From the NCBI GenBank assembly GCA_009841075.1, contig VXMP01000080.1:15734-79733 (forward strand): a stretch of DNA of 64,000 bases, in the 5' to 3' direction. Below the pieces are notes generated by a model that was not told where the DNA came from, ran no database searches, and was given only the letters and a program-made list of their open reading frames with translations. Shown here one piece after another: positions 28,011 through 57,972 of the stretch (position 1 is the first letter of the stretch; every line of letters begins with the position of its first letter). Source of the stretch: Acidimicrobiia bacterium (lineage in GTDB: Bacteria; Actinomycetota; Acidimicrobiia; Spongiisociales; Spongiisociaceae). The position numbers were made by a program, and so were the translations under genes.

Positions 28011-28496
28011 TTGACCGATTTCCTGCATCTGGTGAAGCGGTTCTGGGACGTAACCCTGGCCGCCCGTCTTTCCCCGAGAGAGCAGGCCGAGGTAGCCGAA
28101 CTTCTTAACCCCGGCGAGGAGACCAACCTGTTCTGGGATCAACCTCCCTCCGATCAGAGACACGGCCTGGTAGCCGCACGGGAGGTTAAAGCAGCCCATC
28201 CTCAGAGAGACGATCTGGCCAGAAGCGCCCTTCTCCATGACATAGGGAAACGTCATGCCCGACTGGGACCGATCGGAAGGTCGCTGGCTACCCTGCTCGG
28301 ACAATTCGGTTGGACTCCTTCCACCCGTTACGCCACCTACCTGGATCACGGCCCGATCGCCGCCCGGGAATTGGAAGAAGCCGGAGTCGAACCTTTGGTA
28401 GTGGAGTACGCCCGGCATCATCATGGAGAGCGGCCCAACCTCATCTCACCCGAAGACTGGGAACTCCTCCAAACCGCCGACCGGGCTTCTTCCTAA
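28011..28496 (+). CDS. HD-domain protein
   Basis: Contains the HD signatures RHGLV.. and LLHDIGK. TTG start. Confidence 0.7.
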   Translation: MTDFLHLVKRFWDVTLAARLSPREQAEVAELLNPGEETNLFWDQPPSDQRHGLVAAREVKAAHPQRDDLARSALLHDIGKRHARLGPIGRSLATLLGQFGWTPSTRYATYLDHGPIAARELEEAGVEPLVVEYARHHHGERPNLISPEDWELLQTADRASS

Positions 28497-28515
28497 GGTT
28501 CTCAGAAACCGCTTC

Positions 28516-28925
28516 TAACCAGGTAAAACACTACGAGAACGCGAAAAAAGCCACACCTCACCCGGCTACGCCGGGTCCCCGCCCCCGCCTCACACCACCT
28601 GATTCGGAGCGTGGTCAGCCATGCCCGGACTGAAGCCGGGAGACTGCGGTTCGGCTGTCGCTCCATACAAATATGTTCCCTCAACTGCCGGGGATCCGAT
28701 CGGGATACCATTCCTCTAACCCGGCCTTCGGTGCTTGGCAACCCACTACGTATCATGGAACACCGACAAATTCAACCCCCTTATTTGAGAACGCGAAAAA
28801 ACGCTTCCCAAGCAGCTCAAAATCACCTCAAAGGGGAGTTCGTTGGGGCTTCGGTTGGAGTACCTCGAAAGGCCGATTCAAGAAGGTTTCCCGAAGACAA
28901 ACCCGGGCCAAGTTCCCGAACGCAT
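28516..28925 (+). repeat. copy 1 of a ~400 bp non-coding interspersed element (candidate structured RNA or MITE-like element)
   Basis: It aligns block by block with 57567-57972 in the same orientation. Shared blocks include CTCACCCGGCTACGCCGGG, GGAGCGTGGT.AGCCATGCCCGGACTGAAGCCGGGAGACT, TTGCCGGGGATCCGATCGGGATACC, ACCCGGCCTTCGGTGCTTGGCAACCC and CTACGTATCATG. GAACGCGAAAAAA occurs at 28537 and at 28789. Confidence 0.85.
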
Positions 28926-29036
28926 CAAAGGGTTTTCGCGTTCCCTTTCCGGCCAGGGGTATGGTGTGTCGATCGGTTCTCGAATGAACCCTTTTCGAAC
29001 GCCTACCATTAAACCTTCTAAGTCCGATATAAGGTA

Positions 29037-55582: not shown

Positions 55583-57532
55583 TTGGATGAAAACACTTTG
55601 AGCATCGAACTTGTTCTGCCCGACGGCACCGTCACCTGCCATAAGGAGGGGGTAACCGGCCTGGCCATAGCCGGATCGATCGGCCCGCGTCTCGCCGACG
55701 CCGCGATAGCTGTATCAGTGGACGAAGAGTTGATGGACCTCAACCGCCCGATCTATTCGGGAGGACAGTTCGCGGTTATTACCCAAGGCTCCGAGTCGGG
55801 CCGAGACATTCTGCGCCATTCCGCCGCCCATGTAATGGCCCAGGCCGTACTCAACCTCTTTGAGGGGGCGACCTTCGCCATCGGGCCGGCGATAACCGAC
55901 GGTTTCTATTACGACTTCGACCTAGACCGCCCCTTTACCCCGGAAGATCTGGAGGAGATCGAAAGGGAAATGGATCGGATCATCGCCGAAGATCAACCTT
56001 TCGAGCGGGAAGAAATGTCCCGTGAGGTCGGTCTGGAGTTGTTTCGCGACCACCCGTACAAGCTGGAGATCATCCGCTCGGTGGACGACACCGAGGTGGA
56101 TTCCGGCGATATCATCTCCGTGTATCGCAACCACGAGTTCGTAGATCTATGTCGTGGGCCACATTTACCTTCAACTGGAAGGTTAAAGGCATATAAGCTA
56201 ACCCGAACTGCCGGGGCCTACTGGAGAGGCGATGAAAAGCGCCCCCAGCTCCAACGCATCTACGGAACAGCCTGGGAGTCACGGAAGGCCCTCCGCACCC
56301 ATCTGCACCGGATAGAAGAAGCTGCCCGAAGAGATCACCGCAAATTGGGTCGGGAGCTCGACCTGTTTTCCTTCCCGGAAGATCTGGGGCCTGGTCTGGT
56401 GGTGTGGCACCCCAAGGGGGGCATGCTGAGACGATTGGTCGAGGATTACAGCCGCCGAGTTCATCAGGATTTCGGCTTCGATTTCGTCTTTTCGCCCCAT
56501 CTGGCCAAGGCCGGTCTCTGGCAAACCTCCGGTCATCTGGATTTCTATGCCGAGAACATGTATCCGGCTTTGGATATGGATCAGGACGAGGAATATCGGG
56601 TCAAGCCGATGAACTGCCCCTTCCATGTCCTTATCTACCGTTCGGACGCCCGTTCCTATCGAGACCTGCCGATCCGTCTGTCCGAGCTCGGGTCGGTTTA
56701 TCGATACGAACGGTCCGGTGTGGTGCATGGCCTGCTTCGGGCTCGTGGCTTCACCCAGGACGACTCACACACCTTCTGCACCAGACAACAGCTGCCGAAC
56801 GAGCTGCAACTTCATCTTGATTTCGTGCTTCAGCTGCTGAGGGATTTCGGGTTCAAGGATTTTCGGTCCGAGTTGGCTACCCGACCCGAAGAGAAGTGGG
56901 TTGGAGAACCGGAGCTTTGGGAGCTGGCGGAGCAGAGTCTGGCCGAAGCCCTGGAAACGGCGGGAATCCCCTTGCGGATCGCTGCCGGTGAAGGGGCCTT
57001 CTACGGGCCGAAAATAGACGTACACGTGGAAGACGCCATCGGGCGGGGCTGGCAGATGTCCACCATCCAGGTGGACTTTTCCCTGCCGGAACGGTTCGGG
57101 CTCGAATATGTAACCTCGGAGGACACCAGGGAGCGTCCCGTGATGATCCACGCCGCCAAGTTCGGTTCGGTGGAACGTTTCCTCGGGGTTCTCATCGAGC
57201 ATTACGCCGGGGCTATGCCCATTTGGCTTTCCCCGGTTCAGGCCACCATCGTTCCCGTAGCCGACCGGCACGTCGAGTATGCCTTGGAGATAGCCGATCA
57301 ACTCCGTGGCGAGGGTTTAAGGGTGGAGACCACAGTTGGCCCCGGCAAGCTGGGAGAGAAGATTCGCCGGGCCATTACCCAGAAGGTTCCGGCCATTTTG
57401 GTGGTGGGCGATCAGGACGTCGAGAACGGCACGGTAGGCCTTCGACTCCGTTCACAAAAGGGGGAGAGAAGGGGAGTCCCTAGAGAAGAGGCTGTGTCAG
57501 ATCTGCTCTCTGCCGCCCAACCTCCCCACTAA
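55583..57532 (+). CDS. thrS: threonine--tRNA ligase
   Basis: Has a TGS N-terminus, the editing-domain motif HSAAHVMAQA, and class II core motifs (FRDHRKLG, MNCPFH, YRYERSG, GAFYGPKID). TTG start. Confidence 0.95.
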   Translation: MDENTLSIELVLPDGTVTCHKEGVTGLAIAGSIGPRLADAAIAVSVDEELMDLNRPIYSGGQFAVITQGSESGRDILRHSAAHVMAQAVLNLFEGATFAIGPAITDGFYYDFDLDRPFTPEDLEEIEREMDRIIAEDQPFEREEMSREVGLELFRDHPYKLEIIRSVDDTEVDSGDIISVYRNHEFVDLCRGPHLPSTGRLKAYKLTRTAGAYWRGDEKRPQLQRIYGTAWESRKALRTHLHRIEEAARRDHRKLGRELDLFSFPEDLGPGLVVWHPKGGMLRRLVEDYSRRVHQDFGFDFVFSPHLAKAGLWQTSGHLDFYAENMYPALDMDQDEEYRVKPMNCPFHVLIYRSDARSYRDLPIRLSELGSVYRYERSGVVHGLLRARGFTQDDSHTFCTRQQLPNELQLHLDFVLQLLRDFGFKDFRSELATRPEEKWVGEPELWELAEQSLAEALETAGIPLRIAAGEGAFYGPKIDVHVEDAIGRGWQMSTIQVDFSLPERFGLEYVTSEDTRERPVMIHAAKFGSVERFLGVLIEHYAGAMPIWLSPVQATIVPVADRHVEYALEIADQLRGEGLRVETTVGPGKLGEKIRRAITQKVPAILVVGDQDVENGTVGLRLRSQKGERRGVPREEAVSDLLSAAQPPH

Positions 57533-57566
57533 ATCAGTGAACCTGAGGTTCGTGGTAAAGCCTCTA

Positions 57567-57972
57567 TAACCTGGGAAAACACTAACAAGAACGCGAAAAT
57601 CGGCCCATCTCACCCGGCTACGCCGGGCCCCAGCCCCCGCCACCGCCGCCGAAGAAGGAGCGTGGTGAGCCATGCCCGGACTGAAGCCGGGAGACTACTG
57701 TTTGGCTTTCGCTCCATTGAATGTTCCCAAAATTGCCGGGGATCCGATCGGGATACCTACCTCTTACCCGGCCTTCGGTGCTTGGCAACCCCCTACGTAT
57801 CATGACTTTTCAAAAAGGTCAACCCCTAATTTTGGGAACGCGAAAAAAATCCCCCAAGCACCTTAGGCCAACTAAATCAAGGCCTCGTGCACTTCGGTTG
57901 GAGTACCCCGCAAGACCCGGTTGGAACAGGATCATCAAGACAAACCGGAGGCTTTCCCCCCCCGAACGAGTC
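57567..57972 (+). repeat. copy 2 of the ~400 bp non-coding interspersed element
   Basis: It is co-linear with 28516-28925. GAACGCGAAAA occurs at 57589 and at 57836. It lies in the convergent spacer between thrS and a minus-strand membrane-protein gene. Confidence 0.85.

Follow-up and report, generated by a model that had tools for sequence, protein, structure and literature searches.

The window, the whole 64,000-nucleotide stretch of DNA analysed here, corresponds to C50:15734-79733 of a draft genome (G000) of 2.3 Mb in 90 contigs. The spacer between an HD-domain gene and scpA contains a segment (28516-28925) that was claimed in the initial annotation to recur in the same orientation at 57567-57972, and a pairwise alignment bears this out with 83% column identity over ~520 columns. 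In 11 relatives the HD-scpA spacer is of ~50 bp and free of the element; the lineage-specific insertion as a whole extends in G000 from ~28488 to ~28960. The 5' leader of this first copy overlaps the upstream HD-domain gene and provides its TAA stop codon at 28494-28496. The insertion has replaced the final codons of the gene, the end of which differs between G000 and the 11 relatives (ADRAVLGGS* versus ADRASS*). Another small repeat lies on the same HD stop codon in four relatives. The core of the second copy starts 7 nt past the stop codon (57530-57532) of an upstream gene, which we take to be of the size of a threonyl-tRNA synthetase, the label being based on its length of 649 aa alone.

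The repeat unit was defined from an alignment of the G000 copies together with the copies of the relatives, and its conserved core measures ~255 nt. From 5' to 3' the unit comprises the 5' leader, the motif GAGAACGCGAAAA, the hairpin P1, a C-rich tract (CCCCNCCCCCGCC..CCACC), the nested helices P2-P3-P4, a ATGTTCCC linker and the hairpin P5, followed by a conserved, helix-less block of ~60-90 nt (GGTGCTTGGC, ACGTAT, GTGAC, TTCAACCCC) and by a second GAGAACGCGAAAA, at which conservation among the G000 copies falls off. On the minus strand, the 3' block of copy 1 reads TTGAAT-17 nt-TACGTA. The segment first delimited is real, but the family unit spans ~28488-28803, and the sequence beyond 28802 is an optional module only. 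This module is found behind ~8-10 of the 63 copies in the genome and never by itself; its terminal inverted motif, at C50:44666, corresponds to window position 28933. The relatives carry tandem 35-bp hairpin units on the 5' side (2.6 copies with 83% matches, as detected by TRF), the number of which varies even among matching-site copies of related species. The repeat is a mosaic of recurring modules present in variable number, as seen for the 35-bp units and the optional 3' module. The coordinates of the features are collected in Table 1.

Table 1. Features of the two copies of the repeat in the window (window positions) and the basis of each assignment
Feature	Position	Strand	Basis or remark
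5' leader module, copy 1 (CCTAAGGTTC...TAACCAGGTAAAACAC)	28488..28535	+	29-copy multiple alignment; conservation begins at CCTNAACCTAAGGTTC
5' boundary motif GAGAACGCGAAAAAA, copy 1	28536..28550	+	sequence reading, motif census
Hairpin P1, CCCGGC-TAC-GCCGGG	28562..28576	+	covariation
Invariant C-rich tract (TCCCCGCCCCCGCC..CCACC)	28577..28599	+	alignment columns CCCCCGCC and CCACC invariant
Nested stem domain, P2 > P3 > P4	28606..28664	+	covariance model R1, alignment A5
P2, GGAGCG/CGCTCC	28606-28611 / 28659-28664	+	encloses P3
P3, CAGCC/GGCTG	28616-28620 / 28653-28657	+	encloses P4
P4, CCCGG-ACTGAAG-CCGGG	28624-28640	+	invariant
Hairpin P5, GCCGGG...CCCGGC	28687..28725 (arms 28687-28692/28720-28725)	+	two-sided changes
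Conserved palindrome CCGATCGG inside P5	28696-28703		
3' block (GGTGCTTGGC, CTACGTAT, ATTCAACCCC)	28730..28786	.	sequence conserved, no supported helix
3' boundary motif GAGAACGCGAAAAAA, copy 1	28787..28801	+	sharp 3' edge of the family unit
Optional 3' module, copy 1	28802..28935	+	ends in inverted motif GGGTTTTCGCGTTCCC, 28920-28935
Core, copy 2	57539..57850	+	nhmmer match C50:73272-73583; R1 match 57586-57719
5' motif, copy 2	57587-57599		
P1, copy 2	57613-57627		
3' motif, copy 2	57834-57849		
Optional 3' module, copy 2 (CTTCGGTTGGAGTACC.. block common to copy 1)	57851..57972	+	pairwise alignment columns 370-440

Copy number and distribution

A total of 63 matches to the repeat were identified in the genome, by blastn and by nhmmer alike. 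The element is thus interspersed, as had been proposed, and not a duplication of two copies. These matches include 29-30 full-length internal copies and ~30 located at contig ends. Since about 30 of the 63 abut contig ends, the repeat is a main cause of the assembly breaks in G000. In sponge-metagenome DNA runs, the depth was flat at ~45x over the genes and, when summed, 60-150 times greater over the repeat. The assembled G000 copies are at most 89% alike, so that near-identical pairs were not usable for placing the 5' end; the youngest copies have probably collapsed at the contig ends.

The repeat is present in all the 12 genomes of the GTDB genus, with at least 14 matches in each, and the profile recovers the full core even where the BLAST match is of 85 bp only. 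A pattern scan detected 27 further copies in metagenome contigs. When 301 genomes of the class Acidimicrobiia (135 genera) were searched with the covariance model R1, only two genomes, both belonging to this genus, gave matches, and an exact scan of genome contigs for a 27-mer specific to G000 returned none. Copy 1 and seven related loci found no match in Rfam at either gathering or relaxed thresholds, in line with its initial description as novel. Elements of the sister genus (G015, G020, G023) share the 5' end (motif, CCCGGCTACGCCGGG, C-rich tract) and the 3' end (CAATACCC..GGAACGCGAAAAAAA) and have a different interior; G000 also carries a second, smaller repeat family of this layout.

Hairpins and coding potential

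A covariance model (R1) was built for the 5' domain and 92 matches, 85 of them distinct, were aligned. In this alignment, the fitting of which to the model flatters pairing, 94.7% of the cells formed standard pairs, as against 87% in shuffles and 36-49% with the partners slid; none of 500 shuffles matched the observed value on any of five measures, and two-sided change was seen in 11 of the 24 pairs. The four hairpins named at the outset (P1 to P4) were all located, and their description as conserved stem-loops is supported: four of the five hairpins, namely P1, P2, P3 and the additional P5, are backed by compensatory changes, and P4 shows no variation at all. The clearest case is P1, in which all 7 modelled pairs have changed on both sides among the 85 distinct sequences and 97.9% of the cells are paired, with variants such as CCCAGC/GCTGGG and CCGGTGC/GCACCGG. 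Covariation is modest in P2 and P3 (98.4% and 90.1% paired, respectively, with two compensatory pairs each). In P5, 4 of 6 pairs show two-sided change between lineages, which carry at least four helix versions, namely GCCGGG/CCCGGC, CCGGCC/GGCCGG, CCGGTA/TACCGG and CCGGCTG/CAGCCGG. The helix versions of P1 and P5 are unmistakable by eye. Compensatory changes of this kind, together with the clarity of the P1 and P5 versions, indicate that the hairpins are real and under selection, which by itself does not make the repeat an RNA.

Beyond the 5' domain, a strict all-pairs scan supported P5 only, and no covarying helix was detected by the strict scan in the 3' block (28730-28786). An all-pairs scan that allowed columns to be skipped produced many spurious helices. 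The structures predicted by RNAalifold on MAFFT alignments were poor or misleading because P1 is shifted between the lineages, and the long-range CACC/GGUG pairing among them shows no two-sided change.

The repeat is non-coding, as was recognised from the two copies in the window. Reading frames are open in at most 9 of the 29 copies, the length of 391 of the 425 gap runs is not divisible by three, and the variable sites are distributed over the codon positions without periodicity (44/42/40). A protein-coding reading was rejected on these grounds, namely unkept frames, non-triplet indels and absent codon periodicity.

Genomic context, mobility and competing explanations

All the full copies are intergenic. 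With gene positions taken from a crude in-house ORF caller, convergent genes flank 15 of the 29 full copies (background 15%). In 33 of 47 cases, the gene on the 5' side of the repeat is co-oriented and turns its 3' end towards it, the median distance being ~55 nt.

The initial suggestion of a non-autonomous mobile element is borne out by presence/absence polymorphism between species at the HD-scpA, L061 and L067 sites. The L061 site, queried with chimeric flanks, holds a copy in G009 and G001 but none in G011, G002, G008, G007 and G005; at the L067 site, which is too diverged for the junctions to be read, G011 and G006 have a copy and G007 has none; at a third site, a copy is present in at least nine species. 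L061 provides the only filled/empty pair that could be read at the nucleotide level. Here ACCGTCTC and CGTCGAGG directly border the insert, and neither a target duplication nor inverted ends are seen; GAGAACGCGAAAA is missing from the empty site, and the 3' motif from the inserted copy. Identity reaches 97-98% between paralogues of one genome, as against 83-92% for the matching-site copies across species, the flanks of which are 77-91% identical. The identity of the paralogues stops right after the 3' motif and reaches 40-100 nt upstream of the 5' motif. Taken together, the presence/absence sites and the similarity of the paralogues show that the repeat behaves as a mobile or a converting one. 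The features of a MITE were not observed, the ends being direct repeats of the motif and the resolved filled/empty pair being devoid of target duplication.

One copy of the repeat has itself served as a target. At L074 in G007, an IS110 element of ~1.46 kb lies between ...GGGCCCTCC and (A)CCCCGCCGCC, inside the invariant C-rich tract. At two loci in G008 that lie near an IS110 gene, the match to the repeat profile begins at the identical position, and these half-copies would be compatible with an IS110 insertion. The IS110-family elements IS621 and ISPpu10 are reported to target REP-type repeats (PMC11208160; bioRxiv 10.64898/2026.03.19.712850). By analogy, the C-rich tract may be the landing site of an RNA-guided IS110, the RNA guidance being taken from the published work on the IS110 family.

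Several explanations other than an interspersed repeat were weighed. That the repeat is a multi-copy structured small-RNA gene, perhaps mobile and read from the minus strand, is unlikely in our assessment, the initial annotation having offered an unclassified sRNA family as a candidate, although it accounts for a number of observations in the relatives. The proposed RNA would start just downstream of a TTGAAN-17-TAnnnT box, near GCCAAGCACC, run through P5, P2-P4 and a G-rich tail, and end at a P1 terminator. All the supported helices do lie between this promoter-like box and P1, and the box, which is itself conserved and helix-free, occurs on the minus strand of the 3' block in 18 of 18 relatives and in 11 of 15 metagenome copies. 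In the relatives, P1 is immediately followed by TTTTT on the minus strand and was called a terminator by the scan. The sister genus, which keeps the ends around a different interior, carries TTGACC-17-GATAAT at the corresponding position (10 of 12 consensus matches), and the units of genus g4 (G019) likewise terminate in a G-rich tract and a hairpin. Among the G019 units, L151 and L152 have a T-run and L153 and L154 an A-rich tail.

The G000 copies, however, speak against a small-RNA gene. At the position of the -10 box, all 30 of 30 carry TACGTA-type hexamers (mostly TACGTA, some TAAGTA) and hence no TAnnnT, the final T being absent; none has a T-run beside P1; and this signal-less genome still holds the densest set of copies found (63 in 2.3 Mb, the counts for the relatives being lower bounds). 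A sigma-70 scan of the E. coli type gave no promoter in copy 1, L063 or L057. The RNA-specific signal is weak: the folding z-scores are unremarkable and non-significant on both strands (-1.08 and +0.67 for the strands of copy 1, -1.15 and -1.22 for a relative), the ratio of G.U to A.C pairs (28:13 at the haplotype level, many at helix ends) favours, if anything and weakly, the plus strand, the matching-site copies diverge as fast as their flanks, and Rfam offers no match. The small-RNA reading stays mainly for the relatives, for which it is a minor possibility.

It is quite unlikely that the repeat represents, in this genus, a class of small mobile units found throughout the family, each a self-contained unit of transcription, and that the G000 copies are a silenced offshoot of it. 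Such units would each consist of a TTGAA-N17-TAnnnT box, a structured insert that varies, a G-rich tail, a hairpin serving as terminator and GAGAACGCGAAAA. If this were true, the RNAs of the units would share a role, possibly pairing via the G-rich/C-rich tract that is read by IS110 bridge RNAs.

The distribution of the boundary motif raises the question of a cassette moved by site-specific recombination at GAGAACGCGAAAA, attC- or dif-like, which would leave solo sites behind; we consider this improbable. Direct copies of the motif do flank the core and, as described above, paralogue identity ends at the 3' one. A census of the motif in G000 gave 25 sites at the 5' ends and 28 at the 3' ends of element copies, and 32 sites outside the copies of this family, ~10 of which are the ends of the second related family. 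The 13-mer GAGAACGCGAAAA occurs 38 times in G000 and is enriched in all the four genera of the family (4-64 per genome), including those without the core; it is absent from G004, a member of the same genus, and from three genomes of other families, and the reversed control gave no occurrence. In both G019 and G014, tandem units of 250-690 bp have the motif at their borders. However, an empty site without the motif argues against GAGAACGCGAAAA as a recombination site, as do the inserted copy without the 3' motif and the extension of paralogue identity upstream of the 5' motif, and no recombinase was found linked to it. Several of the solo motifs are placed ~80-160 nt (several of them 125-129 nt) upstream of co-oriented genes, among which are two of the WhiB-like type and a group coding for small coiled-coil membrane proteins, a placement that fits a promoter-region or regulator-binding signal. 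The motif may be the site of a regulator or part of a promoter/terminator module shared by the repeats.

A transposase-less IS110 miniature with a bridge-RNA-like scaffold, moved in trans by IS110 recombinases, would account for insertion without target duplication or inverted repeats; IS110 genes occur in 7 of the 12 genus genomes, and the size of ~300 bp and the two stem domains loosely recall a bridge RNA. We nevertheless hold such an origin to be very improbable: nhmmer with the repeat profile over 12 fetched IS110 loci found only the flanking target halves and nothing inside the IS110, the IS110 in L074 has ends that do not resemble those of the repeat, IS110 genes are absent from G000 and from four other genomes with many copies, and the insertion sites share no visible common target sequence.

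The IS200/IS605, TnpB or IscB remnant with a guide (omega) RNA scaffold that the initial annotation offered as a candidate, to which the subterminal hairpins and the lack of inverted repeats and target duplication would be suited, is close to refuted. The Y1/RAYT transposase (PF01797) was found in none of the 12 genus genomes, the control genomes giving matches; TnpB (14 matches) is present in 3 of the 12, G000 not among them; no repeat was detected within 1.5 kb of TnpB at the 12 loci fetched from these 14 matches; and HEARO and the other guide-RNA families in Rfam were unmatched. RAYT, TnpB and IS110 were each rejected as the source of the repeat, by absence, non-linkage and want of shared sequence.

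Relation to known repeats and significance

We consider the repeat, with moderate confidence, to be an interspersed repeat of the REP/BIME/ERIC kind that is non-coding, mosaic in build and restricted to one lineage. It shows the properties by which REP-type repeats are recognised, being non-coding, extragenic and dispersed, with palindromes maintained by compensatory changes and a mosaic of modules. As no RAYT is present in the genus, its membership is one of kind, that is, of behaviour, and not in the REPIN-RAYT system. The best-supported reading is that of a new, lineage-specific family of this kind, unusually long and modular, that serves as an IS110 landing pad.

Understood as an interspersed repeat of this kind, each copy would be assembled from an optional run of 35-bp hairpins, GAGAACGCGAAAA, P1, the C-rich tract, P2-P4, P5, the 3' block and GAGAACGCGAAAA. 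The repeat encodes no enzyme and must therefore be copied in trans, presumably to new intergenic sites by a trans-acting factor. Copies would persist where they are least harmful, directly behind genes, where they may be taken up into the 3' untranslated region and in some cases provide the stop codon, as seen for the HD gene. The hairpins plausibly act as transcription stops or as protectors of RNA ends, and in the relatives P1 with its T-run has the classic form of a terminator acting on the opposite strand. The invariant C-rich tract appears to have been adopted as an IS110 landing site in one relative, and half-copies in a second relative are compatible with this. The long conserved unpaired stretches, which go beyond classical REPs, could reflect a specific RNA or protein partner.

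The REP/BIME repeats of Enterobacteria and Pseudomonas resemble the present family in being non-coding, extragenic and of high copy number, in lying behind genes or between convergent ones, in their mosaic of hairpin units and other motifs with compensatory upkeep of the hairpins, and in serving as landing sites for the IS110 family, as with IS621 and ISPpu10 on REPs. Unlike a REP, which is a 35-nt palindrome, the present repeat has a ~255-nt core with five helices and long invariant unpaired stretches; its genus has no RAYT, and the family is confined to one genus and its sister genus.

The ERIC (IRU) sequences of Enterobacteria and the Correia (NEMIS) elements of Neisseria are kin in type, being longer (100-160 bp) structured intergenic repeats. 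Both are transcribed together with adjacent genes, and promoter or terminator signals can occur within them. They are imperfect palindromes with terminal inverted repeats, the Correia elements also with TA duplications, whereas neither feature is seen here at the resolved site, and the present repeat is two to three times longer. Miniatures derived from IS110 (MITEPpu9, the ssr9 module of ISPpu9) similarly have neither transposase nor inverted repeats; the repeat, in contrast, bears no sequence relation to the IS110 of the genus and is a target of IS110, not a derivative. HEARO and omega RNAs (of IscB and TnpB) are likewise multi-copy, structured and non-coding, with a length of a few hundred nucleotides, but here there is no match in Rfam and no linked nuclease gene.

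The repeat has practical consequences for the genome. About one in six contig ends falls within it, which accounts for the fragmented draft, and ORFs annotated inside it are spurious, while some gene ends and stop codons are derived from it. The family-wide 13-mer GAGAACGCGAAAA constitutes a separate intergenic signal. Current understanding would be changed only if the RNA reading were true. As an interspersed repeat, the family would, by analogy with the published IS110 systems, provide an actinobacterial, sponge-symbiont example of a long structured repeat that acts as the landing pad of an RNA-guided IS110 and, since no RAYT/TnpA is present, a candidate in which a new mechanism of repeat movement may be found.

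Boundary motif and its solo occurrences

The 13-mer GAGAACGCGAAAA, which flanks the non-coding ~255-nt repeat core as direct copies, is strongly enriched in each genus of the bacterial family (4-64 occurrences per genome), including genera without the core. Its reversed control gave 0 occurrences, and the 13-mer itself had 0 occurrences in three genomes from other families. Solo sites in G000, the Acidimicrobiia genome of this study, often lie ~80-160 nt upstream of co-oriented genes, which include WhiB-like genes and genes for small coiled-coil membrane proteins. A family of small proteins of 86-133 aa combines one N-terminal membrane helix with heptad-like repeats (RIDKVDQ, DAALRKEI), and each of its genes is 125-129 nt downstream of a solo motif.

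Tandem arrays of 250-690-bp units, with the motif at the start of each unit, were observed in the related genomes G019 and G014. Each unit closes with a TTGAAT..TAAAAT/TAAACT box, a G-rich tract and a hairpin. In one array the promoter of a RecQ-like helicase gene, together with its first ~30 codons, recurs six times ahead of the intact gene.

Coordinates of the motif, associated elements and other repeats (G, genomes; C, contigs; L, fetched loci)
Feature	Location	Remark
GAGAACGCGAAAA motif	window 28536-28550	
GAGAACGCGAAAA motif	window 28787-28801	
GAGAACGCGAAAA motif	window 28920-28935	inverted
GAGAACGCGAAAA motif	window 57587-57599	
GAGAACGCGAAAA motif	window 57834-57849	
Small heptad-repeat protein family	G000 C53:997-1883	outside window; two genes in tandem
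Small heptad-repeat protein family	G000 C64:7165-7663; C68:41670-42196	outside window
Tandem arrays (L151-L155)	G019:C1:1766800-1769800, 910100-911500, 2229900-2232400, 939900-942400; G014:C1:155600-156400	
35-bp tandem units	L033 1345-1435; upstream flanks of L054-L070	
IS110-family element in repeat	L074 1227-2692	G007:C1 near 438332
Further IS110 loci with repeat	L076, L082 (G008)	repeat copy near an IS110 gene
TAGTTGCTAGTTG... small repeat	L042, L044, L048, L052	HD-scpA spacer of G002, G011, G003, G010
Second repeat family	G000 C3:2419, C16:5750-5969, C34:11137-11348, C44:14434-14644, C59:16272, C68:21203, C86:36677-36888	outside window

Elements adjoining and interrupting the core

Tandem 35-bp units, each consisting of GAACCTGAGGAACAG and a 16-18-nt palindrome, sit ahead of the core in relatives, and their number differs between matching-site copies of related species. 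In one repeat copy, the invariant C-rich tract between hairpins P1 and P2 is interrupted by an IS110-family element of ~1.46 kb, whose right end carries TTGACA, as expected for a promoter that would form at the circle junction.

Other repeats and abundance of the core

A second repeat family of lower copy number in G000 shares the layout of the core family: motif, GGGCTTCGCCC hairpin, CCCGCCCCCACCTCCACC, ..., GGTGTTTGGTA..CAACGTAT..GACA, motif, with a motif-to-motif spacing of about 210-220 bp. The spacer between the HD-domain gene and scpA, where copy 1 resides in G000, holds another small repeat in four relatives. This repeat (TAGTTGCTAGTTG...) is about 100-260 bp long, has periodic arms of the CCAGTGGCC type and lies on the HD-domain gene's stop codon; the end of the gene is thus a hotspot at which unrelated repeats accumulate.

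Summed contig depth across copy 1 (window 28532-28775) was ~60-150x that of the flanking genes in three public runs, X1-X3, which appear to be DNA from sponge holobionts. Such an excess fits a repeat present many times in several strains or species that occur together.
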